Assembly: GCA_020631175.1 (NCBI GenBank)
Contig: JAHDHT010000012.1
Location: forward strand, 4,494-36,748
Direction: 5' to 3'
DNA length: 32,255 bases
Origin: Chitinophagales bacterium
GTDB taxonomy: Bacteria; Bacteroidota; Bacteroidia; Chitinophagales; JAHDHT01
Positions 8,193-24,819 of this stretch are shown piece after piece (within the stretch, counting starts at the first letter, position 1; each line of letters begins with the position of its first letter). A program made the translations under genes and the position numbers. Under the pieces are notes generated by a model. It saw nothing but the letters and a program-made list of their open reading frames with translations, searched no databases and was not told where the DNA came from.

Positions 8193-8216
8193 GAAGTTTA
8201 AGAATTAAAATACAAA

Positions 8217-8247
8217 CCCGGATCGTTCAATCGATCCGGGTTTTTTT
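8217..8247 (+). terminator. Rho-independent terminator after the giant gene
   Basis: CCCGGATCG-ttcaat-CGATCCGGG (9-bp GC-rich stem) followed by TTTTTTT. Confidence 0.8.
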
Positions 8248-8363
8248 GTTTCATTTTCGAAAGAGAATTATCAGGAAGATTCATCAAGATATTAATATGG
8301 TCGATCGCTCAATATTTGTGGAGAACCCTTTAATATTTCATTTATTATATCATTAGTTATTAG

Positions 8364-8371
8364 TAACTTTG
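8364..8371 (+). promoter_or_regulatory. Candidate Bacteroidota -7 promoter box for the nqr operon
   Basis: TAACTTTG matches TAnnTTTG, 35 nt upstream of the nqrA ATG. Motif-only call. Confidence 0.35.
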
Positions 8372-8406
8372 CGCAGAATTTTTTAGGGTCAAATTTAACC
8401 GCTAAT

Positions 8407-9783
8407 ATGAGTAAAGCGATAAAGCTAAAAAAGGGGTTCAATATCAATTTAGATGGCAAACCCGAACTTAAGCTTGATAAATCGATTAAGGCAAGTACAT
8501 TTGCCGTGAAACCAGCTGATTTTCAGAGTCTTCGACCAATACCGAAGTTAACAGTTGAGGTAGGAGATGAAGTTCTTGCAGGTGATCCATTGTTTTTTGA
8601 TAAGCCAAATCCTGATGTTTTGTTTACTTCACCGGTAAGTGGAGAAGTTGCAGAAATTAGAAGAGGTGCAAAAAGAGCAATTGATTCGGTAATTATCATT
8701 GCTGATGGAAAGAACCAGTTTAAAGATTTTGGATCTGCAAATCCTAAGAATCTTTCAAGAGAAGACGTAAAAGCTAAACTGAAAGAATCAGGATGTTGGG
8801 CATTTATTAAGCAACGTCCATTTAATATTGTCGCAGAACCTGATGCTGTTCCAAGAGATATATTTATCTCAGCTTTCGATACAAATCCTTTAGCTGCAGA
8901 TACAGAGTTTACACTTGGAGCTGAATTAAAAGCTTTTCAGGCAGGTATTGATGCCTTAAATCAACTTACAGATGGCGATGTCTACGTAGGAGTTAATGGC
9001 GGAATTGGAGGTTCTTCTTTCGATGGCCTTTCAAATTGTACCGTGAATAAGTTTTCCGGTCCGCATCCAGCAGGAAATGTTGGAGTTCAAATTCATCACG
9101 TAAAGCCAATAAACAAAGGTGAAATTGTATGGACGGTTTCTCCTTATGATCTTGTTACCATTGGGAAACTCTTCCTTCATGGTAAGTACGATACTTCAAG
9201 AACAATTGCTATTGGAGGGCCTTCAGTAGCTGAGCCAAAGTATATAACTACTTATTCAGGTGCTAAGGTTTCTGCACTTTTGGATGGAAATATCAACGAA
9301 GAGAATGTTCGAGTAGTATCAGGGTCTGCATTAGTAGGAGATAATATAGGTATCGATGGATTTTTAGGATCATTTCATCATCAATTAACCATTTTAGATG
9401 AAGGTGATTTTTATGAAATGCTCGGATGGATCCTTCCAAGTTATCCTAGACCAAGTATTTCTCCGACAATTCCACCTTTCACTTTAACTACTAAGTTTCC
9501 ATTTATAAAGAAGGTAGATAGCTTTAATGCGAATACAAATACACACGGTGAAAAACGAGCATTTGTGGTTACTGGTCAGTATGAAGCTGTAACTCCAATG
9601 GATATTTTCCCTCAGCAATTGCTAAAAGCTATTCTAAGTAATGACTTAGATAAAATGGAAGGTTTAGGAATATATGAGGTCGTTGAAGAAGATATGGCTC
9701 TTTGCGAATTTGTTTGTACATCTAAGTTTAATGTACAGGAGACACTTCGTAAGGGCTTAGATTTAATGAGAGAACAAGGTTAA
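8407..9783 (+). CDS. nqrA: Na+-translocating NADH:quinone oxidoreductase subunit A
   Basis: 'MSKAIKLKKGFNINLDGKP' N-terminus, 'SPVSGEVAEIRRGAKRAI', 'FSGPHPAGNVGVQIHH'. First gene of the canonical nqrABCDEF order. Confidence 0.95.
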   Translation: MSKAIKLKKGFNINLDGKPELKLDKSIKASTFAVKPADFQSLRPIPKLTVEVGDEVLAGDPLFFDKPNPDVLFTSPVSGEVAEIRRGAKRAIDSVIIIADGKNQFKDFGSANPKNLSREDVKAKLKESGCWAFIKQRPFNIVAEPDAVPRDIFISAFDTNPLAADTEFTLGAELKAFQAGIDALNQLTDGDVYVGVNGGIGGSSFDGLSNCTVNKFSGPHPAGNVGVQIHHVKPINKGEIVWTVSPYDLVTIGKLFLHGKYDTSRTIAIGGPSVAEPKYITTYSGAKVSALLDGNINEENVRVVSGSALVGDNIGIDGFLGSFHHQLTILDEGDFYEMLGWILPSYPRPSISPTIPPFTLTTKFPFIKKVDSFNANTNTHGEKRAFVVTGQYEAVTPMDIFPQQLLKAILSNDLDKMEGLGIYEVVEEDMALCEFVCTSKFNVQETLRKGLDLMREQG

Positions 9784-9803: not shown

Positions 9804-11072
9804 ATGCGCAAAGCGAGTTTTTTACGGAAGCAAATAGATAAGGTAAAACCTTATTTTAACAGCAATCCGATATTACATACGGTTTTCGATGGACTTGAAA
9901 CTTTTTTGTTTCAACCTAATGAAACTACTACATCCAAAACCCACATTAAGGATGGGATGGATTTAAAACGTACGATGGTGCATGTTGTAATTGCTATGGC
10001 ATTATGTGCAGCACATGGTACGATGAACATTGGTCATCAGCACTATGCAAGCATGGGAATGTTTCCTGGTTTGTTTGATGGTTTATTGTACAAATTAACT
10101 TACGGTATTATTCAGTTCCTGCCAATTTTCACAGTAGTGCATTTAGTTGGACTGGGGATTGAATTCTTGTTTGCCGCATCTAAAGGGCATGCAATCGAAG
10201 AAGGCTTTCTGGTCTCCGGTTTCCTTATTCCGCTTATAATGCCGCCTGATATTCCTTTATGGATGGTAGCTGTTGCCACTGCTTTTGCGGTAATCATAGC
10301 TAAAGAAGCATTTGGTGGTACGGGAATGAATATATTGAATGTGGCATTAACAGCAAGGGTCTTCGTGTTCTTTGCTTATCCAACAGCAATCTCCGGAGAT
10401 GAAGTTTGGATTGCGCAGGATTACAATATCATTCATCAGATAATCGGTTTACCTCAAGTTGCTTTTGAACATTTTGGTATTAACAAAATGCCGGATGGAG
10501 GCTGGGCCACAATGATGGTCGACGGCTATACCGGAGCTACTCCATTGGCTTTAGCGGCTAAGGGTGGATGGCCTGCAGTAACAGAATATTATTCACTAAA
10601 CGATATGATTATGGGTTTCATCCCTGGTTCAGTTGGTGAGATGAATAAATTATTAATCATTGCCGGAGCTGCATTCTTAGTTTTTACCGGAATTGGAAGT
10701 TGGAGAATTATGCTTTCAATGTTAGTAGGCGCTATCGTTATGGGCATTCTTTTAAATGTAATAGGAGGTGCAATGGGGCTCGATCAAACGGCATTTGTTA
10801 ATGTGCCATGGTATTATCAATTAATTATGGGATCCTTCTTCTTTGCAATGGCCTATATGGCAACGGACCCCGTAACAGCTGCTCAAACTGAAAGTGGTAA
10901 ATATATTTATGGATTCCTTATAGGAGTAGTCGGTATGATTGTTCGGGTGCTTAACCCGGCATATCCGGAAGGATGGATGTTAGCCATCTTATTACTAAAT
11001 GTATTTGCTCCGTTAATTGATCATGTTATTGTTAATAGAAATATTAAAAGGAGGTTAGCTCGTGTCGGATAA
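9804..11072 (+). CDS. nqrB: Na+-NQR subunit B (polytopic membrane protein, covalent FMN)
   Basis: Multi-TM protein with the FMN-attachment motif 'GYTGATPLA', plus 'MATDPVTA' and 'NVFAPLIDH'. Confidence 0.95.
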   Translation: MRKASFLRKQIDKVKPYFNSNPILHTVFDGLETFLFQPNETTTSKTHIKDGMDLKRTMVHVVIAMALCAAHGTMNIGHQHYASMGMFPGLFDGLLYKLTYGIIQFLPIFTVVHLVGLGIEFLFAASKGHAIEEGFLVSGFLIPLIMPPDIPLWMVAVATAFAVIIAKEAFGGTGMNILNVALTARVFVFFAYPTAISGDEVWIAQDYNIIHQIIGLPQVAFEHFGINKMPDGGWATMMVDGYTGATPLALAAKGGWPAVTEYYSLNDMIMGFIPGSVGEMNKLLIIAGAAFLVFTGIGSWRIMLSMLVGAIVMGILLNVIGGAMGLDQTAFVNVPWYYQLIMGSFFFAMAYMATDPVTAAQTESGKYIYGFLIGVVGMIVRVLNPAYPEGWMLAILLLNVFAPLIDHVIVNRNIKRRLARVG

Positions 11073-12129
11073 TATTAAAACAGTATTATACGCAGCAGTT
11101 ATGACGTTAATTGTTGCGATCTCTTTAGCTTTCATTACTTCGTTTCTGAGACCAACTCAAAAGGCAGAAGAAAATAAAGACAAGAAGGTAAATATTCTTA
11201 AGGCCGTTGAATTCAACGACTTTATGGATGTCGATGAAGAGTATGCTAAGCGTATACAAGAATTGGTTGTCGATTACAATGGAAAAGTTGTTGAAGGAAA
11301 AAAGGCCTTCGATGTAGATGTTAGAAAAGAGTCGAAAAATAAACCGGCTGAAGAAAGAATGTATCCTTTGTACGTTTACACCAATGATGCTAAAGAGAAG
11401 AAATATATCCTTCCAATGATTGGTCTTGGTCTTTGGGATGAGATATCTGGATTCATGGCTCTTAAAGGTGATTTCAATACCATTGATGGTGCTGTTTTTG
11501 CCCACAAAGCGGAAACACCAGGTCTGGGCGCTGAGATAACAACAGATTGGTTTCAAAGTCAATTTCGAGGTAAAAAGCTAATGGATGCAGGTGGTAAAAT
11601 GATATTTAATGTTCTCAAAGGTCGTGGAAATACATTAGATCAATATGAAGTCGATGGCATTACCGGTGCAACAATTACATGTGTTGGAGTTGATAATATG
11701 ATAGCTGAAGATGTTGCTTCATATGCTAATTTCTTCAAATCAGAATCAAAGAAATTATCTGTAGCATCAGGAGGGAAATCAGTTAATCCTGCTTTGAAGA
11801 ATCCAACTGTTACAAGAATGGCTAAAGATTTTTTCAAGATTGACAAAGTTAGAATCGCTAATCAGATTAATTTCCATAATAACTCATCATTTGTAACTGA
11901 AAATTCATTTCCTCAAATTCAGGCATTGGTTGCTTATTTAAATAACAATCCTGAAAAACGAGTGAAGATTAAAGTGAATAACAAGAATAATGGTGAGCTT
12001 TCTCAAAGAAGATCAGAAAATATTTATGATTATGCACTTCAGCAAGGTGCGAGAATAGCTCAGTTAGAGTTTGAAGGAACAAGTGAAAAGAATAGAAATA
12101 ATAACGTAGTTTTTGAATTATTAAACTAA
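11062..12129 (+). CDS. nqrC: Na+-NQR subunit C with an unusual ~125 aa C-terminal extension resembling a degenerate OmpA-like domain
   Basis: The GTG start overlaps the nqrB end by 11 nt. Has an N-terminal TM helix, 'ETPGLGAEI' and the FMN-attachment motif 'DGITGATIT'. The canonical NqrC core ends near aa 228, but the ORF continues to aa 355. Confidence 0.9.
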   Translation: MSDNIKTVLYAAVMTLIVAISLAFITSFLRPTQKAEENKDKKVNILKAVEFNDFMDVDEEYAKRIQELVVDYNGKVVEGKKAFDVDVRKESKNKPAEERMYPLYVYTNDAKEKKYILPMIGLGLWDEISGFMALKGDFNTIDGAVFAHKAETPGLGAEITTDWFQSQFRGKKLMDAGGKMIFNVLKGRGNTLDQYEVDGITGATITCVGVDNMIAEDVASYANFFKSESKKLSVASGGKSVNPALKNPTVTRMAKDFFKIDKVRIANQINFHNNSSFVTENSFPQIQALVAYLNNNPEKRVKIKVNNKNNGELSQRRSENIYDYALQQGARIAQLEFEGTSEKNRNNNVVFELLN

Positions 12130-12135
12130 GTATTT

Positions 12136-12825
12136 ATGAGTACTGCAACAGCAGATCAGATAGAAGAAGTAAAAGTACCCAAGAAAGAACGGGAACCCTT
12201 ATTTTCAAAAAAGAACAGAGAATTAATAACAGACCCGCTTGACGATTCGAATCCGATAACGGTGCAGGTATTAGGTATTTGTTCGGCATTGGCAGTTACT
12301 ACACAAGTTAAGCCGGCATTCGTGATGTCGATTTGTGTAATTTTTGTTTGTGCCTTTGCGAATTTAATTATCTCATTATTGAGAAACGGAATTCCATCCA
12401 GAATTCGAATGATTGTTCAATTGGTAGTAATTGCGACGCTTGTAACATTGGTAGCGGAATTCTTAAAGGCTTATCAATATTCATTGTCAAAAGAATTAAG
12501 TGTATACATTGGTCTTATTATTACGAATTGTATCGTAATGGGGCGTCTCGAAGCATTTGCAATGGCAAATAAACCCTGGCCTTCATTATTAGACGGTATC
12601 GGTAACGGTATCGGCTATGGTGCGATACTTATTTTTGTAGCTGTATTCAGAGAATTTTTGGGTTCAGGTTCCTTATTCGGATTTCAAATCATTCCGGATT
12701 GGATGTATGGTATCGGTTATGCCAATAACGGAATCATGCTCACACCTGCAGCAGCTATGTTCTTAATTGGTGTCTTTATTTGGTGGCAAAGAGCAAGAAA
12801 CCAAAAATTAGTTGACATCTCATAA
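12136..12825 (+). CDS. nqrD: Na+-NQR subunit D
   Basis: Polytopic RnfE/NqrD-type membrane protein: 'NPITVQVLGICSALAVT', 'YIGLIITNCIVMGR'. Confidence 0.95.
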   Translation: MSTATADQIEEVKVPKKEREPLFSKKNRELITDPLDDSNPITVQVLGICSALAVTTQVKPAFVMSICVIFVCAFANLIISLLRNGIPSRIRMIVQLVVIATLVTLVAEFLKAYQYSLSKELSVYIGLIITNCIVMGRLEAFAMANKPWPSLLDGIGNGIGYGAILIFVAVFREFLGSGSLFGFQIIPDWMYGIGYANNGIMLTPAAAMFLIGVFIWWQRARNQKLVDIS

Positions 12826-12843
12826 TTTAAATTTCGAAGAATC

Positions 12844-13461
12844 ATGTTAGAAGCTTTAAATATATTTATTCAATCCGCATTCATCGAAAATATGGTATTA
12901 GCCTATTTCCTTGGGATGTGTTCTTTTCTTGCTGTTTCGAAAACGGTTAAAACAGCTTTTGGTCTTGGTCTTGCAGTAATCTTTGTATTAGCGATGACAA
13001 CTCCAATCAACTGGGCGATAAAAAACTTCTTCTTAAATGAAGGTGCATTAGCCTGGATAAATCCTGCATGGGCAGATGTTGATCTTAACTTTTTAGGCTT
13101 AATTATTTACATCGCCGTTATTGCATCATTTGTGCAACTTGTTGAAATGATTGTAGAACGTTTCTTCCCTGCACTTTATACTTCTTTAGGTATTTTCCTT
13201 CCATTAATTACAGTTAACTGTTCTATTCTTGGTGGAACTTTATTTATGATTACTAAAGAGTATAATTTCTGGCAATCTATTCCTTACGGTTTAGGTTCAG
13301 GATTTGGGTTCTTCCTTGCAATTGTTGCTTTAGCAGCAATTAGAGAAAAATTAAGATATAGTGCGGTACCCGCACCGTTACGTGGTCTTGGTATAGCTTT
13401 TATCATTACCGGATTAATGGGTATTGCATTCATGAGTTTTATGGGAATTAAAATCTCATAA
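12844..13461 (+). CDS. nqrE: Na+-NQR subunit E
   Basis: RnfA/NqrE-type protein: 'ENMVLAYFLGMCSFLAVS', 'GIFLPLITVNCSILGG'. Confidence 0.95.
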   Translation: MLEALNIFIQSAFIENMVLAYFLGMCSFLAVSKTVKTAFGLGLAVIFVLAMTTPINWAIKNFFLNEGALAWINPAWADVDLNFLGLIIYIAVIASFVQLVEMIVERFFPALYTSLGIFLPLITVNCSILGGTLFMITKEYNFWQSIPYGLGSGFGFFLAIVALAAIREKLRYSAVPAPLRGLGIAFIITGLMGIAFMSFMGIKIS

Positions 13462-15935: not shown

Positions 15936-17033
15936 ATGAGTTTACAATGTGGAATAGTCGGATTACCTAATGTTGGGAAATCCTCTTTATTTAATGCTTT
16001 ATCTAATGCAGGTGCTCAATCTGCAAACTTCCCTTTTTGTACTATAGAACCGAATGTGGGAGTGGTACAAGTTCCTGATGATCGATTAATGGAATTATCC
16101 AATCTGGTTAATCCGCAAAAGATTATCCAAACTACTGTTGAAATAGTAGATATTGCCGGACTCGTTAAAGGAGCTAGTAAGGGAGAAGGCTTAGGTAATC
16201 AGTTTCTTGGAAATATTAGGAATACAGATGCAATTGTACATGTTGTAAGGTGTTTCGATGATGATAATATTGTTCATGTTGATGGCTCTGTTGATCCGGT
16301 AAGGGATAAAGAGGTAATTGACATGGAACTTCAGTTAAAGGATCTGGAATCTTGCGAAAAAGCTATTGATAAGTACAAAAGAGCTGCAAAGGGAAATGAT
16401 AAAATGGCAATTAAAGGAATTGAAGTTCTTGAAACTGTCAAAAATCATTTAGAAAATGGTAAATCCGCACGTACAGCTCCTGTTGATGAAGACTATTGGC
16501 ACTACATTGATGAATTAGATTTACTTACGGTAAAACCTGTATTATATGTTTGTAATGTAGATGAAGCAAGTGCAAAAGATGGAAATGAATATTCAAAACT
16601 TCTAATTGAAGCGGTTAAAGATGAACCTGCGGAAGTATTAATCGTTTCTGTTGGAATTGAATCAGAAATTGCCCAATTAGAAACGCTTGAAGAACGAATG
16701 GAATTTCTTCAGGAGTTAGGTCTGGAAAAGGGCGGGGTAGAGCGATTAATTCAGGCTTGCTATAAACTCTTAAATCTAATAACATACTTCACTGCCGGCG
16801 AAAAAGAAGTAAGAGCATGGACGATTACAAAAGGAACAGCTGCACCTCAAGCAGCCGGAGTAATTCACACTGATTTTGAAAAGGGATTTATTAGAGCAGA
16901 AGTTATCAATTACAACGATTATGTAAGTCTTGGCTCTGAATCTGTTTGCAGAGAAGCTGGAAAAATCGCCGTAGAAGGAAAAGAGTACATTGTTAAAGAT
17001 GGTGATGTTATGCACTTCAGATTTAACGTTTAA
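15936..17033 (+). CDS. ychF: Ribosome-binding/redox-regulated ATPase YchF
   Basis: '[17 protein letters not shown]' P-loop, '[12 protein letters not shown]', C-terminal '[17 protein letters not shown]'. Confidence 0.95.
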
Positions 17034-17039
17034 AGTAGC

Positions 17040-18155
17040 TTAGCTTAATAACATTAAATCTTTTTTAAATTTATTAGCAAGTTCTTTTAAATAATTACTG
17101 GCATTCGCTATTGCGTCGTCTTTATTTTTTGCAATATCGACAATGCTGTAAATTTTATCTGTATATATCTCTGCCATCTGATCTTCTTTGATCTTATTTA
17201 TTCCGGAAAATAAAATTAGTGGTTTATTATATTGTCTGCATAGTTTAGAAACTCCCGAAATAACTTTACCGTCTAAAGATTGACTGTCAATACAGCCTTC
17301 ACCACTAATGATTAAATCTGCCGATTTAATTTTATCTTCTAATCCGGTTACTTTAGAAATGGCATCAAAACCGTTAACGAGCTTTGCATTAAAAAAAGCA
17401 AGGATGGATGCAGAAACTCCCCCTGCTGCTCCGCATCCATCCATTTGAGAAAGATCGATTCCGACATTATTTTTAATTATGTTGCAATAATGTCGTAAAC
17501 CTGAATCCAGCATTTCGATTTCTTTCTCACTTGCACCCTTTTGTTTTCCATATACATAAGCGGCACCGTTTTCACCGTACAGCTTGTTATTTACATCGCA
17601 TAAAACTTCTATTGAAATTTTTTCTAAATCAAGTTCTGATTGATTATTAATAGAGTCGATAGAAATCAAATTTTCTCCGATAGGTTTTAGTTTTTCTTTT
17701 TCATTATTTAGAAATTCAATTCCAAAAGCATTTGCTAAACCAATTCCACCGTCATTTGTAGCACTCCCTCCAATGAAAAACAATATTTTATCAGCCCCGT
17801 TTAAAATGGCATGTCTGATCATCAACCCCGATCCATTTGTACTTGTATACATAGGATTTCTTTCAGACGGATCTAGTAATACTAAGCCACTTGCCTTAGC
17901 CATTTCAATATAAGCCGTATTATTTTTTTTGTAGTAGTCAGAAGTAATTGGTCTTCCAATCGGGTCTACCGTTTCAACTTTTATTTTATTTAATGCCAAA
18001 AATTTTGATAAGATTTCAATTGAACCATCTCCTCCATCAGCCAGTGGATGACTACTTGTGTCGACACCACCATTCAGAGTTGAAGAGATAATTTCGCAAA
18101 TCTCAAATGCACTTAGTGAACCTTTAAATTTATCCGGAGCAATTAAAATTTTCAT
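17040..18155 (-). CDS. Glycerate kinase (GlxK/GarK family)
   Basis: 'MKILIAPDKFKGSLSA', 'LADGGDGS', 'IGGSATNDGGIG', 'ISGEGCIDSQSLDGKV'. Confidence 0.9.
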   Translation of the reverse strand: MKILIAPDKFKGSLSAFEICEIISSTLNGGVDTSSHPLADGGDGSIEILSKFLALNKIKVETVDPIGRPITSDYYKKNNTAYIEMAKASGLVLLDPSERNPMYTSTNGSGLMIRHAILNGADKILFFIGGSATNDGGIGLANAFGIEFLNNEKEKLKPIGENLISIDSINNQSELDLEKISIEVLCDVNNKLYGENGAAYVYGKQKGASEKEIEMLDSGLRHYCNIIKNNVGIDLSQMDGCGAAGGVSASILAFFNAKLVNGFDAISKVTGLEDKIKSADLIISGEGCIDSQSLDGKVISGVSKLCRQYNKPLILFSGINKIKEDQMAEIYTDKIYSIVDIAKNKDDAIANASNYLKELANKFKKDLMLLS

Positions 18156-18167
18156 TTGATAACTACT

Positions 18168-19733
18168 TTAAAAAAAATAGGGGACACAGAGACTAATTAT
18201 GACTATCAAAATGAAAAAGCCAATTAGTAGTAAAACTTTATTCTTGTCAAACCCTTCTTTGTCAGGTAATAATTCAAATGATACATCTGAGTTTTTATTA
18301 AATAACATGCTTGAAGTAATCGCAACAACCAATGTTACAATTGCGCCAATTGCATTCCACCAAAACCAAAATACACTTGGTACTAATTGCCATAAAATAA
18401 TATTAACACCTACTCCGACAAAAATTCCAAGATTAATACCTCTTGCATTTACTGACTTAATCCCAATAGCAGCAATAAACGTAGCCAATATAGGTCCGTA
18501 AAAAACGGAACCAATTTTATTAATAGCTTCAATTACCGTTTCTGCAATAGAGCCGGTAAAGAAAGCTAATATAATACAGACCAATCCCCAGAATAAAGCA
18601 GTCAATCTGGAAAACAGCATGTAATTTTTGGTGCTTAAATTGCCATTAATGTTAAAGAAATCTTCAACGGAAGCAGCACTTAATGAATTGATCGCACTAC
18701 TTAATGATGACATAGCCGCAGAAAAAATGGCGATTAAAAGAACACCAATTATACCATTTGGTAAATAATCTTTTATAAAAACCGGAATCATCAAATCTGG
18801 TTTATCAGCTGGAATCTGACTGATAAATTCCGGTGTAATTAAAGCGAAGGTTCCAACCACCAAACCCATTAAACAATAAACAAATGTAATGGGGAAGCGA
18901 AGTAATCCATTGAACAATAATGTTTTTTTGACGGTTCCGAGGCTTTGAGCTGAAAAAAGTCTTTGTACCTGACTTTGATCTGTTCCATAATAAGATGCAT
19001 ATAAAAAGAAGCCACCTAATAACATTGGCCAGAAACCAAATTCATCTCCCTTTTGAAGTCCCATTGAACTGAAGTTAACAGCATTTAATCTTGATCGATC
19101 CAAGTTGGCAGTAAAGTTTTCCCATCCTCCCAAATAATAAAGACCGGCAACTAAACATATTACTATTCCGAAAAACAATAAAAACATTTGAATCATGTCT
19201 CCATATACAACAGCTTTCATTCCTCCGACGAGCGAATATATTAATGTAACAAAACCAATAATTACAATAGTTTGCCACATGGGTATATCCATCACGCTTG
19301 TAAGAATAAGCGCAACTGCATAAATCATAACACTTGTTCCGAAGGCGCGGCTGATTTGAAAAACCGCACTTACTATTATTCTGGTAGCTTTACTGAATCG
19401 CCTTTCTAAATAAGCATAAACACTTACAATTCCTGATTTATACATAGGAGGGATGAGGAAAATCATGAGAAACAGCATGGCCAGCGGAACAGCAAATTCA
19501 TAGGTTAACCACATCATACCACCACCGTCTTTTAAACCGACAAATGCAGGTGCAGAAATAAAACTAATTGCTGATAACTGTGTAGCTATAGTACTTAATG
19601 ACAAAGGAAGCCATCCAAAACTTTTACCGCCTAAGAAATAGTCTTTTTTATCTTTGTTTTCACGAAAAGCTAATCCAAGCAATAAAAATCCAACTATATA
19701 AATAAAGATTACAATATAATCGACGTAATTCAT
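18168..19733 (-). CDS. Sodium:solute symporter (SSS) family transporter
   Basis: About 13-14 TM segments, 'YFLGGKSFGW', 'GGMKAVVYGDMIQM'. Lies 12 nt upstream of glycerate kinase and 19 nt downstream of the GH gene. Confidence 0.85.
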   Translation of the reverse strand: MNYVDYIVIFIYIVGFLLLGLAFRENKDKKDYFLGGKSFGWLPLSLSTIATQLSAISFISAPAFVGLKDGGGMMWLTYEFAVPLAMLFLMIFLIPPMYKSGIVSVYAYLERRFSKATRIIVSAVFQISRAFGTSVMIYAVALILTSVMDIPMWQTIVIIGFVTLIYSLVGGMKAVVYGDMIQMFLLFFGIVICLVAGLYYLGGWENFTANLDRSRLNAVNFSSMGLQKGDEFGFWPMLLGGFFLYASYYGTDQSQVQRLFSAQSLGTVKKTLLFNGLLRFPITFVYCLMGLVVGTFALITPEFISQIPADKPDLMIPVFIKDYLPNGIIGVLLIAIFSAAMSSLSSAINSLSAASVEDFFNINGNLSTKNYMLFSRLTALFWGLVCIILAFFTGSIAETVIEAINKIGSVFYGPILATFIAAIGIKSVNARGINLGIFVGVGVNIILWQLVPSVFWFWWNAIGAIVTLVVAITSSMLFNKNSDVSFELLPDKEGFDKNKVLLLIGFFILIVIISLCVPYFF

Positions 19734-19752
19734 ACAATAATATTTAAACTAA

Positions 19753-21069
19753 TTAATCAGCTTGTTTTATAAAATCCATTATACAGGCAGCCGTCCATGA
19801 AAATTCTTTGCCGCCATAACCATTGTTTAAATCAGAAACAACTTTCTTTTGTGATTCAAAATATTCGTAAAAGCCTAATTTATCAACTAACTCGATCAAA
19901 TCATTTTTTACTATCTCAGCGGTTTCTTCGAATCCATAGTTTCTTAGTCCATGATAAATCATCCAATTCATCTGAGGCCATACAGGTCCACGCCAATATC
20001 TTTTCGAATCGAATAATGGAGAGTCAACATCGAAACTCGGACAAATATAATATCCTCGGTTATGAAGATTCTGTAAATACTTATTTAGAATCGATGCTTT
20101 ATTTTGATCTGGTATTCCGGCGTATAAAGCTGTTAATCCACCAATTTCTTTATGTTTAATTTGTTGTTTACCTCTTAAATCATAAGTTACATAACATTCA
20201 ATATCATCATTCCAGAACTTATCGTTGTAAACTTTAATCGATTGTTGATTCCACTCTTCAATTTCAGCAGTGTCAAAATTGAATTTTTTACCTAATTGAA
20301 TTAGGCTGTTATTTGATTTGATCAGAATAGCATTCATTAAAGTATCCTGAATTAGAAAAGGACTTTCCTGAAAAATACCCAATTCGTCATAAGCATATTT
20401 CTTACCCAACTGTAATAAATAAACATATCGATCATATTGATCTGAAGTTGGTCTTTCATCAGTAGGGGCTATGCTTGTATCTCTTCTTTGATAAGCCGGA
20501 ATGTCTTCAGGATTTATATTAATTCTGTTTAAAGATTCATCCCAGATAGGGGAGTTGTCCCGGCCACTTTCCCAAGGGTGGAAAATAAACATTAATCCCT
20601 CCTTTTCCGGATCTCTGTATTTGTATAAAAAACGATGACTGTTTACAATTTTCGGAAAAAGGTGTTTTGCAAATTCAATAATCGAAGAATTATTTTCAAA
20701 TCGATTAACAAGTTGTTCTAAAATAAAACCATGAACAGCAGGTTGAGTAATACCTGAAGTTTTTGGTTTGTTCGGTGCACCATTATTTACATTAGAATCC
20801 CAAAAGTCAAAATTCGGAAAGTATGTTTTTTCATTTTCACTATGAAAAATAATATGCGGCAACATTCCATTTTCCCATTGACCGGAAAATAAAGAATTCA
20901 TTTCACGGATTGCATAGTCAATATCAAACTGACATTGTCCAAGACAAACAAAACCTGAATCCCAATTCCATTGAAAAGGATATAGTTTACTTGTTGGAAT
21001 AGTAAAACCATCCTTCCAGTTTAATCTGAGTATTCGTTCTCCCTCAACTAATAAGTTCTCTTTTTGCAT
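19753..21069 (-). CDS. GH63-like (alpha/alpha)6 glycoside hydrolase; glucosylglycerate/mannosylglycerate hydrolase (GgH/MgH)-like
   Basis: 'LYPFQWNWDSGF', 'WENGMLPHIIF', 'TSGITQPAVHGF', 'HPWESGRDNSPIWD', 'RPTSDQYDRYVYLL', 'YWRGPVWPQMNWM', 'FSWTAACIMDFI' parallel the motifs I recall for characterised GgH/MgH enzymes. The start is moved to ATG 21069 (MQKENLL). The track's 18-codon extension to 21123 is just the translation of a terminator hairpin. Confidence 0.8.
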   Translation of the reverse strand: MQKENLLVEGERILRLNWKDGFTIPTSKLYPFQWNWDSGFVCLGQCQFDIDYAIREMNSLFSGQWENGMLPHIIFHSENEKTYFPNFDFWDSNVNNGAPNKPKTSGITQPAVHGFILEQLVNRFENNSSIIEFAKHLFPKIVNSHRFLYKYRDPEKEGLMFIFHPWESGRDNSPIWDESLNRININPEDIPAYQRRDTSIAPTDERPTSDQYDRYVYLLQLGKKYAYDELGIFQESPFLIQDTLMNAILIKSNNSLIQLGKKFNFDTAEIEEWNQQSIKVYNDKFWNDDIECYVTYDLRGKQQIKHKEIGGLTALYAGIPDQNKASILNKYLQNLHNRGYYICPSFDVDSPLFDSKRYWRGPVWPQMNWMIYHGLRNYGFEETAEIVKNDLIELVDKLGFYEYFESQKKVVSDLNNGYGGKEFSWTAACIMDFIKQAD

Positions 21070-21074
21070 AGATA

Positions 21075-21114
21075 TAAATAAAAAGGGGTAAAAGCATTCG
21101 CAGACTTTTACCCC
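21075..21114 (-). terminator. Intrinsic terminator/attenuator between the TonB receptor and the GH63 gene
   Basis: Perfect 10-bp stem GGGGTAAAAG/CTTTTACCCC (21085-21094 / 21105-21114) with a 10-nt loop. On the minus strand it is followed by TTTTTATTTAT. Confidence 0.65.
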
Positions 21115-21179
21115 TGATTCCAAATTTTATGAAAGTCTACATTTAATTACTCATTTAAAAGTAATTAACCAAACACGAA

Positions 21180-23795
21180 TTAAAAATCAAAAGTGGTTCT
21201 AACAAATACTCTTCTTGGAAGAATAGGTCTTCCAACAAAGAAGTCACCTGTTCCAACCTGTGAATCACCTTGTCTAGGAGAACCTTCAGTAATTCCGGCT
21301 TCATCCAGTAAATTGAAAACAGAAACGCCAACTCTTAAGCTTTCGTTAGTTCCTAAATAAAATCTATATCCTGCATCTAAACGAACAATATTAAATCCGT
21401 CTAATTCAACAGTATTTGCATCATTAGCAAACTTACTTCCAAGAAAGTTACTTGATACGTTTAAATCGAATCCATTGTCATCATATGCAAGACCTACCAT
21501 ACCCATAACGTTTGGTTGTCTTCTTAATTCATTTCCAACCAAATCCGGATCATTTTCAACTTCAGTAAATTCGTGATCCTGGAAAGTAAAGTTTCCATAT
21601 GCGTTCAATCCTCTTGTTATATTGTAATTTACATTAGCTTCAACTCCAATAGTCTGAGTACTTTGAACCGAAACAACTTCAGATAAAACTCCATCTACAT
21701 CAACGAAGTCAACATTTCTTCTGTCTCCTAATGCAACATAGAATGCAGCTGCTGTAAATGCAAGCGCATTTTGCCCGTATTTCACACCAACTTCACCTTG
21801 AATAATTGATTCTGTATCATATGTCTCAGTTTCACTTAAGCTGCTAAAATCATCTGTTGAAACAAAGCTTACAGATCTTAATTGAGGGAAGAAATAACCT
21901 CTCGAAACATTAGCATATAAATTGGTAGAATTACTAAGTCTGTATAAAGCAGCCAAAGCTAAAGCGAAGTCACTTGCTGAAACAGTTGCTCTTTGATATA
22001 CATTAGAACCAACGCCAACTTCACGATTTATAAAGCCCGATGCTCTTTCCCATCTTGCTCCAATATCAATATCTAATTTTTCACCTTTAATTTCATCGCC
22101 AATAAAGAAAGCAACTTTACTACTTTCATGATCTCTGTTCGACGTTTGACTGCCCGATACAAAACCATTGGTAGCATGTTGAACAACATTGCCTGCAGTA
22201 TCAGTTAAAGTAATATTTAACATACGAGGTGCATTTCTGAAATCACCTACAAAGAAAGAAAGCCAGTTATCATCTGCAGCCTTTGTATTGGCTAAGAAAG
22301 TACCAAAGCTAATATTATGGTTGTCAATTGTTTTTGTTAAATACGTTTCACCGGAAAGTTCTTCCATTGGTCTTCTTCGATCTAAAATTCTGTTTCTGAA
22401 TACTAAATCGTTTTCTCCTAATGCTGATCCGTCATCTGCATATGTAAATACACCGCTTGTAAATTGATCTCCACTTAAGCCAACATATGTGTCTGCACTT
22501 ATAGGAGAATTAGCATAGTTTCCATCACCATCTAAGAATAAGTTAAACCAGTGGTCATATTTAGCTGCTTTAGATTTGTGATATAATCTCCAATCATTAC
22601 CGAATGAATGTTTTAAATCAAACATTAAATAACCACCTGTAGTAGTCACACCGTCACCAATAGGTGATTCAAATCTTCCGAACGGAGTGTCAAAAGAAAA
22701 ATTAGCTGCATTACTTGTTTGTAAAGTAAAAACTTCTTCTCCATCGTTTCCAATAGGTCTTTCTCTTTGATCGTTTTCATTAGCCAAAGGATAAGGCAGA
22801 TAGAACTGAACATTATCATCTATAAATTGACCTGAAACTATAAATGAAGAATTTCCATCATTAAATAATTTTTTAATGTTACCTCTTATCTGATGTCCCC
22901 GAGTTGGTAAACCGGTAAATAGAGGGCCTTCATCATAACGGTAAAAACCAGAGAAAGCATAGAACAAGTTTTCGCTAAGAGGACCACTTGTTAAGAAATC
23001 CGTTCTTAATCGGCCACCATCTGCCCATTCTAATTGTACTTTATTATCGTGTTCAGCTGAACCGGTTACACTTGTATAATTAATGATACCGGCTACACTT
23101 CCTGCACCAAACAAAGTAGAAGAACCACCTCTTACAAATTCAAGATTTCTTATTCCAAGATCATTTCTGAAATAAACATCATGTGCTGATGAGTTTAATC
23201 CGAATGTGCTTAAAACAGGTAATCCATCGACCTGAAGTGGTGTATATTGATATTGACCGCCGGAAGGCATACCTCTAACGAAAACATTAGAAGCAACTTC
23301 TCCACCACCACCTTCAGCAGTAATTCCCGGAATTGTTCTTAAAATATCTGCCTGCGAATTACTTGCCAGTTGTTCAAGACGTTTTGAATTAATTAATGTA
23401 ACCGACATAGGAGAGTCTTTTTGTGTTCGCTCACTAAATGTACCGGTTACTACAATTTCATCTAAAGATAAATTGTCGAGTCCCATTCTAACATCAGAAG
23501 TATAAGCTTTTCCGTCTTCGACAGTCAGTGTCGCTTGTTGAGTAGAATAACCGATGTAAGAATAAACTAAAGTCTGTGTACCTGCCGGCACCATAAGTGT
23601 GTAGTTTCCATTAAGATCAGTAGAAGTTCCAATTGTTTTTCCTTTCACAACTACTGTAACACCAATTAATCCCTCGCCGTTGGCATCTTTAACAGACCCC
23701 GAAACGGTTCCCTGAGCAAAGCTGAATAAGCTAAAACAAATAAAGAAAAAGCTTAAAAGGATGTAGTTAAAAAGAATTGGTTTAGTTCGTTTCAT
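21180..23795 (-). CDS. TonB-dependent outer-membrane receptor with N-terminal CarboxypepD_reg-like domain (no adjacent SusD)
   Basis: Signal peptide, then 'GTVSGSVKDANGEGLIGVTVVVKGKTIGTSTDLNGNYTL', a plug region ('SPMSVTLI', 'DILRTIPGIT', 'VFVRGM'), and a beta-barrel ending 'RRVFVRTTFDF'. Confidence 0.9.
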   Translation of the reverse strand: MKRTKPILFNYILLSFFFICFSLFSFAQGTVSGSVKDANGEGLIGVTVVVKGKTIGTSTDLNGNYTLMVPAGTQTLVYSYIGYSTQQATLTVEDGKAYTSDVRMGLDNLSLDEIVVTGTFSERTQKDSPMSVTLINSKRLEQLASNSQADILRTIPGITAEGGGGEVASNVFVRGMPSGGQYQYTPLQVDGLPVLSTFGLNSSAHDVYFRNDLGIRNLEFVRGGSSTLFGAGSVAGIINYTSVTGSAEHDNKVQLEWADGGRLRTDFLTSGPLSENLFYAFSGFYRYDEGPLFTGLPTRGHQIRGNIKKLFNDGNSSFIVSGQFIDDNVQFYLPYPLANENDQRERPIGNDGEEVFTLQTSNAANFSFDTPFGRFESPIGDGVTTTGGYLMFDLKHSFGNDWRLYHKSKAAKYDHWFNLFLDGDGNYANSPISADTYVGLSGDQFTSGVFTYADDGSALGENDLVFRNRILDRRRPMEELSGETYLTKTIDNHNISFGTFLANTKAADDNWLSFFVGDFRNAPRMLNITLTDTAGNVVQHATNGFVSGSQTSNRDHESSKVAFFIGDEIKGEKLDIDIGARWERASGFINREVGVGSNVYQRATVSASDFALALAALYRLSNSTNLYANVSRGYFFPQLRSVSFVSTDDFSSLSETETYDTESIIQGEVGVKYGQNALAFTAAAFYVALGDRRNVDFVDVDGVLSEVVSVQSTQTIGVEANVNYNITRGLNAYGNFTFQDHEFTEVENDPDLVGNELRRQPNVMGMVGLAYDDNGFDLNVSSNFLGSKFANDANTVELDGFNIVRLDAGYRFYLGTNESLRVGVSVFNLLDEAGITEGSPRQGDSQVGTGDFFVGRPILPRRVFVRTTFDF

Positions 23796-23888
23796 AGCAT
23801 AATGTATTAGTTAAAAGATTTATTTCTGTCAGCTCTGAGGTAATTGCTGATTTAAAATTACATCTAACACCAATGAAAAAATTGGTAG

Positions 23889-23917
23889 TATTCTATCGAT
23901 TAATAACACTATTCTAT
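23889..23917. promoter_or_regulatory. Candidate AraC-type operator: 8-bp direct repeat TATTCTAT spaced 21 bp start-to-start
   Basis: TATTCTAT occurs at 23889-23896 and 23910-23917, in the divergent intergenic region between the TonB receptor operon and the AraC-family gene. A near-consensus minus-strand -7 box TAATTTTA lies at 23853-23860. Confidence 0.3.
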
Positions 23918-23961
23918 AAATAATTTATTATTTTAATATAAGCCAATTAGATTTAAGTGCT

Positions 23962-24819
23962 ATGAAGCCGGAATATGAAAAAATATTTGACCCCATAGAG
24001 AAGTCTTTTGTTGTTAAACAAATCAAACGAGCGAACCGTCCTTTATTAAGTCAGGCCTGGCATTTCCATCCAGAAATTGAAATATGTTTTACAAAGAAAA
24101 GTAATGGTAAACGTTTTGTTGGAAATCAAATTTCAGATTATAGGGAAGGTGATCTGGTGCTACTAGGAAGCAACTTGCCGCACGGATTTACTACAGATGA
24201 TTATTGTGATCAAATTGTAATTCAGTTAAATGAAGATTTTCTTGGAAGAACCTTTATTAATAAACCGGAATTAAGAAGTGTCAAATCTTTGTTTAGTCGC
24301 GCTAAAAGAGGACTTGAATACAAAGAGACTGTTAAAAAGAAAGCCACTAAACTCATCAGCAAGATTGTAAAAAAGAATGGATTTAATCAGTTGATATATC
24401 TATTGGAGCTGCTCAAGCATCTTGCAGATTCTAATGATGTTGAAGAAATTTGCACCAAAGAATATGCGGTGGACTTTAAAGAATCTGAGTTAAGCCGTAC
24501 AAAATTGGTATATGCTCATATAATGGAAAACTTCAGAAAGGATGTAAGTGTAAAAGAAATTGCTGAGAAACTGAATATTTCAGAAGCAAGTTTTTACAAG
24601 TTTATAAAAAAGCAAACAAGTAAAACCTATACCCAGATAGTTAATGAGTTTAGAGCTAACTACGCAAGTAAGTTATTAATTAGCACCGATAAAACAATTG
24701 CACAAATCTGTTTTGAATCTGGATATAATAATGTTTCTTATTTTAATAGAAAATTTAAAAAGATCATGGATCTGACGCCGGGAGAATTCAGAAAACAGTT
24801 TTCTAAAAGGCAAAACTAG
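23962..24819 (+). CDS. AraC/XylS-family transcriptional regulator (cupin-like sensor + HTH)
   Basis: N-terminal 'WHFHPEIEICF...GDLVLLGSNLPHGF' (cupin) and C-terminal 'ICFESGYNNVSYFNRKFKKIMDLTPGEFRK' (AraC HTH). Confidence 0.9.
   Translation: MKPEYEKIFDPIEKSFVVKQIKRANRPLLSQAWHFHPEIEICFTKKSNGKRFVGNQISDYREGDLVLLGSNLPHGFTTDDYCDQIVIQLNEDFLGRTFINKPELRSVKSLFSRAKRGLEYKETVKKKATKLISKIVKKNGFNQLIYLLELLKHLADSNDVEEICTKEYAVDFKESELSRTKLVYAHIMENFRKDVSVKEIAEKLNISEASFYKFIKKQTSKTYTQIVNEFRANYASKLLISTDKTIAQICFESGYNNVSYFNRKFKKIMDLTPGEFRKQFSKRQN

Follow-up and report, generated by a model that had tools for sequence, protein, structure and literature searches.

A four-gene operon on the minus strand of a 32,255-nucleotide stretch of a Chitinophagales bacterium genome (assembly GCA_020631175.1, contig JAHDHT010000012.1, positions 4,494 to 36,748; the whole stretch is hereafter called the window, and window coordinates are used throughout) encodes a TonB-dependent receptor, a glycoside hydrolase of the GH63 type, a symporter of the sodium:solute symporter (SSS) family and a glycerate kinase, and is preceded by a divergently transcribed gene for an AraC-type regulator. 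This operon is probably an inducible system for the scavenging of external hexosyl-glycerates, i.e. 2-O-alpha-mannosylglycerate (MG, digeneaside) and/or 2-O-alpha-glucosylglycerate (GG), a reading to which we assign a probability of about 0.78. It is supported by the families of the encoded proteins, the catalytic and aglycone-binding residues of the hydrolase, the conserved gene neighbourhood, the promoter and operator shared by the genes, and the fact that no synthase for these solutes was found. A GG/MG scavenging locus that is independent of the phosphotransferase system (PTS) and lacks SusD had been proposed in an earlier reading of the sequence alone, and these lines of evidence bear that proposal out. 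The locus is an AraC-regulated, Saprospiraceae-type variant of a locus type that has already been predicted; what is added here is the breadth of its distribution, an active site that is invariant or nearly so across the clade, a candidate operator, a carboxylate-type symporter with an arginine in the third transmembrane helix (TM3), a hairpin after the receptor gene and a gap in the fate of the hexose. The features of the locus are as follows (ORF, open reading frame; HTH, helix-turn-helix).

23962..24819, plus strand: AraC/XylS-family regulator, 285 aa, divergent from the operon (Pfam HTH_18 1e-20, HTH_AraC 1.5e-17)
23853..23918, minus strand: control region with two direct half-sites and a -7 box (sequence and cross-locus alignment)
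23795..21180, minus strand: TonB-dependent receptor, 871 aa (ORF listing and direct reading)
21074..21136, minus strand: receptor-hydrolase spacer element consisting of a TTTCATA box, a 12-bp hairpin and a T-run (terminator-like site call)
21069..19753, minus strand: predicted GH63 hydrolase of the MG hydrolase/GG hydrolase (MgH/GgH) type, 438 aa counted from the ATG (ORF listing, Pfam)
19733..18168, minus strand: SSS symporter, 521 aa (ORF listing, Pfam/NCBIfam)
18155..17040, minus strand: glycerate kinase, 371 aa (ORF listing, Pfam/NCBIfam)

In the proposed pathway, the AraC-type regulator would bind the half-sites located 21 bp apart upstream of the receptor promoter and turn the operon on in the presence of the solute. 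The TonB receptor, as its synteny and the shared promoter suggest, would move the anionic glycoside (~268 Da) over the outer membrane at low ambient levels, and the Na+-coupled symporter would bring it intact into the cytoplasm, a step that is required because the hydrolase has no signal peptide. The hydrolase would then cleave the glycoside with inversion, releasing free hexose and D-glycerate, and the glycerate kinase would convert the latter to 2- or 3-phosphoglycerate (2-PG or 3-PG), which would enter glycolysis. The fate of the hexose is not encoded in the locus, and no genes for it were found elsewhere in the genome; the operons of some relatives include a ROK sugar kinase.

Families and conserved residues of the encoded proteins

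Pfam and NCBIfam agree with the family assignment of all four operon genes. The hydrolase matches PF22422 (MGH1-like_GH) at 8.2e-89 over the whole profile (positions 1-356 of 356), and its best PDB match is the MgH TTHA0978 of Thermus thermophilus (2z07/4wva; E = 2e-99, residues 29-449), followed by the GgH series of Mycobacterium hassiacum (MhGgH; 5e-58 to 1e-55). The match to the Pfam GH63 C-terminal model is very weak. The top NCBIfam model is NF047898 (glucosylglycerate hydrolase), reached with 317.5 bits, which is below the equivalog cut-off of 550 bits; by NCBIfam the enzyme thus appears not to be an equivalog of the actinobacterial GgH, and in the tree it is placed nearer to the Thermus MgH.

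With residue roles taken from the structure paper on MhGgH (PMC6608630), the alignment equates the general acid Asp171 of the window hydrolase with MhGgH Asp182 and the general base Glu402 with Glu419, and both residues are invariant in all 71 orthologues. Sixteen of the 17 substrate contacts of MhGgH are identical in the window hydrolase; the sole differing contact is Gln434 of MhGgH, which is replaced by Phe here and also in the Thermus enzyme. The contacts of the +1 subsite are all identical (Tyr36, Trp40, Tyr88, Arg216 and Tyr375 of MhGgH, corresponding to Tyr30, Trp34, Tyr83, Arg206 and Tyr358 of the window hydrolase) and include the residues that hold the glycerate carboxylate (Tyr30, Tyr83, Arg206 and Tyr358). 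Catalytic and contact sites are retained in nearly all (at least 64) of the 71 orthologues, and the +1 contacts are kept in every orthologue whose sequence covers them. Because MhGgH is inactive on glycerol and glycolate analogues, the conserved +1 site points to glycerate as the aglycone. The enzyme had been assigned to the GgH/MgH type of GH63 from its motifs, with a profile search and an alignment of the catalytic Asp and Glu to the characterised enzymes named as the check; the full-length PF22422 match, the match to TTHA0978 and the presence of the catalytic pair together with 16 of 17 contacts uphold this assignment.

The ORF lister placed the start of the hydrolase gene at a TTG at position 21123, and this extended ORF was rejected since it would run through the hairpin in the preceding spacer; the ATG at 21069, the start that had been assumed from the outset, is likely the correct one. 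The N-terminus counted from this ATG (MQKENLLVEGERIL…) contains no signal peptide, so the enzyme is expected to be cytoplasmic. Homology and the complete active site together predict that the protein is a cytoplasmic GH63 mannosylglycerate/glucosylglycerate hydrolase.

It could be argued that the enzyme acts on another alpha-glycoside (trehalose, kojibiose, nigerose or, like cyanobacterial GghA, glucosylglycerol) and that the glycerate kinase is a passenger. The closest of its thousands of homologues (65-73% identity), found in metagenome-assembled genomes (MAGs) of Bacteroidota/Saprospiraceae, carry either no name or the label 'trehalase family glycosidase', oligosaccharide glucosidases such as YgjK are also GH63-like enzymes, the GgH equivalog cut-off is not reached, and the Pfam Trehalase profile (PF01204) yields a partial match of 3.5e-13. 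This match covers only residues 263-422, however, and falls short of that to MGH1-like_GH by 75 orders of magnitude. The TreA/TreF models of NCBIfam score 18-30 bits against cut-offs of 512-941, and PDB trehalases and YgjK appear at just 4e-4 to 6e-3 (trehalases at 4e-4 and 3e-3); a GH37 trehalase and a YgjK-type glucosidase were rejected on these grounds. The four glycerate-carboxylate residues are invariant or nearly so in the orthologues, and synteny of the glycerate kinase extends to 54 of 68 loci from several families and two phyla. The glucosylglycerol variant is excluded only indirectly, without a GghA alignment. Activity on another alpha-glycoside is therefore considered improbable, and cleavage of a hexosyl-glycerate is preferred.

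The symporter scores 207.4 bits with TIGR00813 (sss; cut-off, 184) and matches PF00474 at 6.7e-37, which places it in family 2.A.21 of the Transporter Classification (TC). Its nearest solved relatives are carriers of anions or carboxylates, namely NIS (8e-51), SMCT1 (9e-44), SMVT (3e-40) and SiaT (2.5e-36), and the sugar carriers vSGLT and SGLT1/2 rank behind them (6e-28 to 2e-22). In SiaT, the carboxylate of sialic acid is held by Ser60 and Thr63 in the first transmembrane helix and by Arg135 in TM3 (PMC5931594). The window symporter contains Ser54 and Ser57 at the positions of Ser60 and Thr63, and both are invariant in 69 locus-linked symporters. R129, located in the predicted TM3 one helical turn off the column of SiaT Arg135, is Arg in 67 and Lys in two of the 69 proteins, and the aligned NIS, SMCT1 and SMVT contain no equivalent arginine. 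R129 is thus a candidate carboxylate-binding residue, and these features would fit an anionic substrate. The symporter is likely the inner-membrane importer of the intact anionic glycoside.

The receptor consists of a signal peptide, a CarboxypepD_reg-like N-terminal domain, a plug and a barrel (Pfam: barrel, 5.6e-27; CarbopepD_reg_2, 7e-21; Plug, 1.2e-18). The SusC/RagA model TIGR04056 matches the N-terminal part alone, with 113 bits against a cut-off of 368, and the closest PDB matches are likewise limited to the N-terminal/plug part. Pfam detected no ORF of the SusD family next to the receptor, either in the window or in any of four related contigs. A canonical SusC/SusD polysaccharide utilization locus (PUL) was rejected on the basis of these two results. 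The glycerate kinase belongs to the class I (GlxK/GarK) kinases (PF02595, 5e-118; TIGR00045, 371.5 bits with a cut-off of 168.45) and is encoded by the sole Gly_kinase gene found in the genome. The equivalog models for 2-PG- and 3-PG-forming kinases are both under their cut-offs.

Conservation, control region and spacer hairpin

Synteny was analysed in 80 named loci from contigs representing one genome per species, and the fractions below refer to loci long enough to be judged. The SSS gene adjoins the hydrolase gene downstream in 67 of 74 loci, the glycerate kinase gene lies downstream of the symporter gene in 54 of 68, and the receptor gene is located directly upstream of the hydrolase gene in 38 of 69, with receptor orthologues being 43-69% identical. 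An orthologue of the 285-aa AraC protein is encoded divergently upstream in 27 of 66 loci; in a branch formed by Flavobacteriaceae and Chitinophagaceae (17 loci), a LacI-type regulator replaces it. Four long contigs with unrelated flanks all carry the divergent AraC gene together with the receptor, hydrolase, SSS and kinase genes. Because dozens of independent contigs whose flanks are unrelated show this order, the clustering of the genes is not a matter of chance. Co-occurrence of the four genes across Bacteroidota, which had been named as a check of the sequence-only reading, is borne out by these counts, as is the glycerate kinase as a member of the same operon. The same holds for an uptake route made up of a TonB receptor and a Na+ symporter, for which the families were confirmed, the neighbourhood is conserved and the promoter and operator are shared.

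Carriers were identified in Saprospiraceae, Cytophagales, Flavobacteriaceae, Chitinophagaceae and some Verrucomicrobia, and they include the genera Lewinella, Neolewinella, Reichenbachiella, Winogradskyella, Kordia, Gilvibacter, Robiginitalea, Salegentibacter, Dokdonia and Sediminibacterium; Opitutus, Lacunisphaera and Calditrichaceae are partial carriers. Among cultured strains, carriers include Lewinella cohaerens DSM 23179, Neolewinella agarilytica DSM 24740, Reichenbachiella versicolor, Winogradskyella thalassocola DSM 15363 and Zobellia galactanivorans. The distribution is patchy. Among 400 sampled high-quality Bacteroidota genomes, an orthologue of the hydrolase (E <= 1e-60) was found in 24 (~6%), representing 17 of 180 genera. 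The synteny is strong but not universal, since in G001, the sole other member of the window's family, inserted genes break up the locus and the kinase gene is located elsewhere, and G024, another genome of the order, contains the hydrolase gene alone. In G001 (locus L010 on contig C24), the gap between the receptor and hydrolase genes (7013-9464) contains genes for a methyltransferase and for a Schlafen/AlbA_2 plus HATPase_c_4 protein, and three unassigned ORFs are located between the hydrolase and symporter genes (11061-13388). The insertion in this sister genome may be of a defence type.

Additional genes were observed in several loci. A gene for a GNAT acetyltransferase (Acetyltransf_3, ~200 aa) lies between the hydrolase and symporter genes or after the kinase gene in 12 of the 80 loci and is not present in the window. 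Among the four long contigs, it is located between the hydrolase and SSS genes in three and after the kinase gene in the fourth. Its positions include 9326-9937 in L013, 9326-9919 in L012, 9308-9919 in L015 and 12108-12599 in L017. In seven receptor-less flavobacterial loci, the hydrolase gene is immediately preceded by a divergent gene for a SIS-domain protein (GKRP/MurQ-like, 253 aa; e.g. 8085-8846 in L071).

The AraC gene of the window starts 166 nt upstream of the receptor gene, and the intervening spacer contains two direct half-sites with a 21-bp period, TATAGAATAGTG at 23918..23907 and GATAGAAT at 23897..23890, followed by a Bacteroidota-type -7 box, TAATTTTA, at 23860..23853. In general form the motif is TATAGAATAGTG-N9-GATAGwwT, with a TAnnTTTG box beginning exactly 58 nt past the start of the motif, and the operator motif and -7 box align without gaps in ~20 related loci. 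A scan of the 4.37-Mb assembly gave a single match to the pattern, and the reversed control gave none. The regulator has the C-terminal double HTH of AraC-type proteins, and its direct half-sites ~21 bp apart abut the promoter, as is expected for this type. The divergent AraC protein is thus probably the activator of the operon, and the direct repeat is its candidate operator. In the receptor-less Lewinella loci L034 and L038, the operator is located directly upstream of the hydrolase gene, suggesting that one regulon includes both the receptor and the catabolic genes.

The four co-directional genes had been described as being separated by 12-19 nt. The hydrolase-SSS (19 nt) and SSS-kinase (12 nt) spacers agree with this description, and the receptor-hydrolase spacer, where a hairpin had also been noted, is 110 nt long. 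In this spacer, a TTTCATA box (21135..21129) is followed by a 12-bp G+C-rich hairpin (21115..21084; dG, the folding free energy, -17.4 kcal/mol) and a T-run (21083..21074), which ends 4 nt before the ATG of the hydrolase gene. In nearly all of 41 related spacers, a comparable hairpin is present after the receptor stop codon (dG -14 to -33 kcal/mol in almost every case), usually with a T-run. In 13 loci of the Saprospiraceae group (spacers of L019-L061), a TTCAT core is invariant 10-20 nt upstream of the hairpin, and the stem variants GGGGTAAAAG, GGGGGAAAAG and GGGGTAAGG contain changes that, judged by eye, appear to be compensatory. An Rfam search with the spacer hairpin gave no match below E = 1. 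The hairpin may be an attenuator, a 3' stabiliser, or a terminator combined with an internal promoter; it would probably raise the ratio of receptor to enzyme transcripts or stabilise the receptor message.

Such a structure could also mean that the receptor gene is a separate transcription unit for an unrelated ligand, with the hairpin being a full terminator and the hydrolase, symporter and kinase forming a pathway supplied through porins. A strong terminator-like hairpin with a T-run after the receptor gene, present both here and in nearly all relatives, is what this explanation would lead one to expect, as are the -7-like box AAAATTTG just before the hairpin and the lack of the receptor in ~45% of evaluable loci, with the AraC operator then directly preceding the hydrolase gene (L034 and L038). 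Where the receptor gene is present, however, the operator is found just once, upstream of that gene, and not in front of the hydrolase gene, the 14 nt between the hairpin stem and the hydrolase ATG leave no room for a downstream promoter, and full-length receptor orthologues (43-69% identity) hold exactly the same position from Saprospiraceae to Flavobacteriaceae/Chitinophagaceae. A separate receptor unit is thus quite unlikely, and the receptor is treated here as part of the scavenging operon.

Origin of the substrate and fate of its products

All biochemically characterised members of the hydrolase family act on MG or GG made by the cell itself (PMC5381378, PMC6608630), and mycobacterial ggH likewise adjoins putative transporter genes. 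The hydrolase and kinase might accordingly recycle the cell's own compatible solute, as occurs in Thermus, Rubrobacter and mycobacteria after the relief of stress, with the transporters re-capturing what leaks out. No mannosyl-3-phosphoglycerate (MPG) synthase (PF09488) was found in this genome, which is 83.5% complete, or in five cultured carriers, in a search that did not cover one-step MgS (GT78) and routes of the sucrose-phosphorylase type; for GpgS, the best scores in the same genomes were ~54-60 bits against a cut-off of 262, other GG routes not being searched. An outer-membrane TonB receptor under the same promoter would also make little sense for an internal pool. Because no synthase was found and the receptor and symporter share this control, the locus is better read as taking up an external solute, and self-recycling seems very unlikely.

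Several observations weigh against the scavenging reading. About 45% of evaluable loci have no receptor, which would thus be an accessory part, and the hairpin behind its gene could be a full terminator. The hydrolase is only 40% identical to the Thermus MgH and 29% identical to MhGgH, and it falls below the GgH equivalog cut-off (317 versus 550 bits). The negative result for synthases leaves out one-step MgS and other routes of MG/GG synthesis. Finally, no hexose kinase or phosphomannose isomerase (PMI) was found in either genome of the family, so that half of the proposed pathway is missing. More precisely, searches for ROK, Glk, BadF/G-type and eukaryote-type hexokinases and type I PMI gave no hit in the 83.5%-complete window genome, nor did those for ROK, Glk, PMI-I and PMI-II in the 97%-complete sister genome G001. 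It is possible that the hexose is handled by an unrecognised kinase or an oxidative route, or that the glycerate half alone is used. A ROK sugar kinase gene is located between the SSS and glycerate kinase genes in seven loci (e.g. 8446-9348 in L019), as expected if free hexose were released.

The choice between MG and GG was considered separately. The window hydrolase shares 40% identity with the Thermus MgH, 29% with MhGgH and 41-44% with flavobacterial enzymes, and with MhGgH as the root of the tree, the nearest characterised enzyme (Thermus MgH) lies just outside a single clade containing all locus-linked enzymes. MgH-type enzymes are reported to split MG and GG alike, and MhGgH prefers GG (PMC5381378). 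Since the window enzyme groups with the MgH type, it is predicted to have dual specificity, and its sequence cannot choose between MG and GG. The replacement of Gln434 by Phe, being common to the dual-specificity Thermus enzyme, does not discriminate between the two, and neither do the negative searches for hexose kinases and PMI in the two family genomes. No second operator site that would mark a sugar-specific member of the regulon was found in the 4.37-Mb assembly. The emphasis that had been placed on GG from picocyanobacteria is thus not sustained, because the sequence does not favour GG over MG and the enzyme is nearer to the dual-specificity Thermus MgH than to the GG-preferring MhGgH.

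The locus is also found in genera usually regarded as freshwater, i.e. Sediminibacterium and MAGs of Chitinophagaceae and Verrucomicrobia (habitats were deduced from the names of taxa and isolates). The ecological source of the substrate may differ by lineage, and for the freshwater genera GG from cyanobacteria or other bacteria would be more plausible. We consider it possible, though rather doubtful, that the natural substrate in the Saprospiraceae-like bacteria and the freshwater genera is GG from cyanobacteria or nitrogen-starved bacteria and not red-algal digeneaside, and that the cell harvests mainly the glycerate half or uses an unrecognised hexose route. Four loci of Sediminibacterium, Chitinophagaceae and Lacunisphaera (L068, L072, L073 and L074) contain a pair of GH63 paralogues that fall into separate sub-branches of the tree; possibly one is tuned to MG and the other to GG.

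Related systems and genomic context

Kappelmann et al. 2019 (ISME J, supplementary text and Table S3; PMC6298971) described 'digeneaside (mannosylglycerate) PULs' in 11 of 53 North Sea Flavobacteriia. These consist of genes for a LacI-type regulator, an outer-membrane receptor, a GH63 enzyme that carries a trehalase annotation, an SSS transporter and a glycerate kinase; SusD is lacking, and the TonB-dependent transporter (TBDT) is not SusC-like. Red macroalgae were assumed to be the source of the solute. For the locus of Zobellia galactanivorans, Barbeyron et al. 2016 is cited there (PMC6298971); ZGAL_2226 is given elsewhere as a GH63 mannosylglycerate hydrolase and ZGAL_2229 as a glycerate kinase (PMC8072126). 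In Arctic Bacteroidetes, GH63 is listed under 'glycoglycerate hydrolase / cyanobacteria' (PMC11573768). No biochemical or genetic test of a Bacteroidota locus and no assayed Bacteroidota enzyme were found in the literature searched, and the digeneaside PUL assignment is a bioinformatic prediction. The view that the system had not been characterised thus stands with respect to experiment, but its architecture had already been predicted.

The window fits the gene set of the digeneaside PUL (regulator, non-SusC TBDT, GH63, SSS, glycerate kinase and no SusD) and has the same gene order. In flavobacterial loci with this layout, e.g. L065 and L067, the receptor, symporter and kinase are 44-48, 51-57 and 40-43% identical to those of the window, respectively. 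The two differ in the family of the regulator, which is LacI there and AraC with its own operator in the window, and the window hydrolase belongs to a separate Saprospiraceae/Cytophagales branch and is only 41-44% identical to the flavobacterial enzymes. The red-macroalgal source given for the digeneaside PUL is, moreover, unlikely in carriers from the genera usually regarded as freshwater.

The two characterised relatives of the hydrolase resemble it in its active site and differ in their setting. TTHA0978 of Thermus (2z07, 4wva-c) aligns over its full length (40% identity) and shares the catalytic pair and the Phe at the Gln434 position, whereas Thermus has an MPG synthase and recycles its own MG, and no such synthase was found in the window genome; TTHA0978 also has no reported TonB receptor, SSS or glycerate kinase neighbours. 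MhGgH (5ohc and others; PMC6608630) belongs to the same fold family, shares the pair Asp182/Glu419 and 16 of 17 contacts and is inverting, but it is only 29% identical, strongly prefers GG and contains Gln434 in place of the Phe of the window enzyme. Its role is in recovery from nitrogen starvation on an internal pool, in contrast to the external uptake proposed for the window locus.

Clusters for glucosylglycerate phosphorylase (GH13_18), an enzyme whose specificity was recognised through the glycerate kinase gene next to it (Franceus et al. 2017; PMC7178133), are similar in that GG catabolism is marked by a glycerate kinase. The phosphorylase itself is from an unrelated enzyme family, yields glucose-1-phosphate by phosphorolysis and is often encoded next to GG synthesis genes.

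Dedicated catabolism of exogenous mannosylglycerate, like that proposed for the window locus, is known from the MngR-MngA-MngB system of Escherichia coli, which yields a mannose derivative and glycerate. That system differs in that uptake and phosphorylation are carried out by the PTS and the 6-phospho form is cleaved by a GH38 alpha-mannosidase, and it includes no TonB receptor, SSS transporter or GH63 enzyme. The SuxA/SuxC/SuxB/SuxR locus of Xanthomonas, which serves in TonB-dependent uptake of sucrose, follows the same logic as the window locus (a TonB receptor, a secondary transporter, a cytoplasmic hydrolase and a regulator, with no SusD), but its proteins, phylum and substrate are unrelated.

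MG and GG are abundant low-molecular-weight products of red algae and nitrogen-limited picocyanobacteria, and Bacteroidota dominate the turnover of carbon in algal blooms; an experimentally demonstrated MG/GG route in Bacteroidota was not found in the literature searched. A prediction made for a few marine Flavobacteriia is extended here to Saprospiraceae, Cytophagales, Chitinophagaceae and some Verrucomicrobia, and the widespread automatic annotation 'trehalase family glycosidase' is corrected. The conceptual novelty is modest, and the practical use lies in better assignment of substrates in metagenomes and metatranscriptomes. If the GG reading is true, loci of this kind would form a widespread sink for glycosylglycerate compatible solutes within aquatic dissolved organic matter, and the receptor would be the first TonB-dependent transporter with a compatible solute as its dedicated substrate.

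The host had been taken to be flavobacterial. The nearest relatives of the locus proteins are all in Saprospiraceae MAGs, and the YchF protein encoded in the window is 80-84% identical to metagenome proteins, with the nearest named match being from a Chitinophagales MAG (72%); these matches place the host in a Chitinophagales/Saprospiraceae-like lineage and not among the flavobacteria.

The gene cluster has clear borders, since ychF is convergent with the glycerate kinase gene on one side and nqr and apbE genes (Pfam) are located further upstream on the other. The stop codons of the kinase gene and ychF are 6 nt apart. No terminator lies in between at this junction (17031-17042), and the best terminator-like site on the operon strand falls within ychF (16857..16837).

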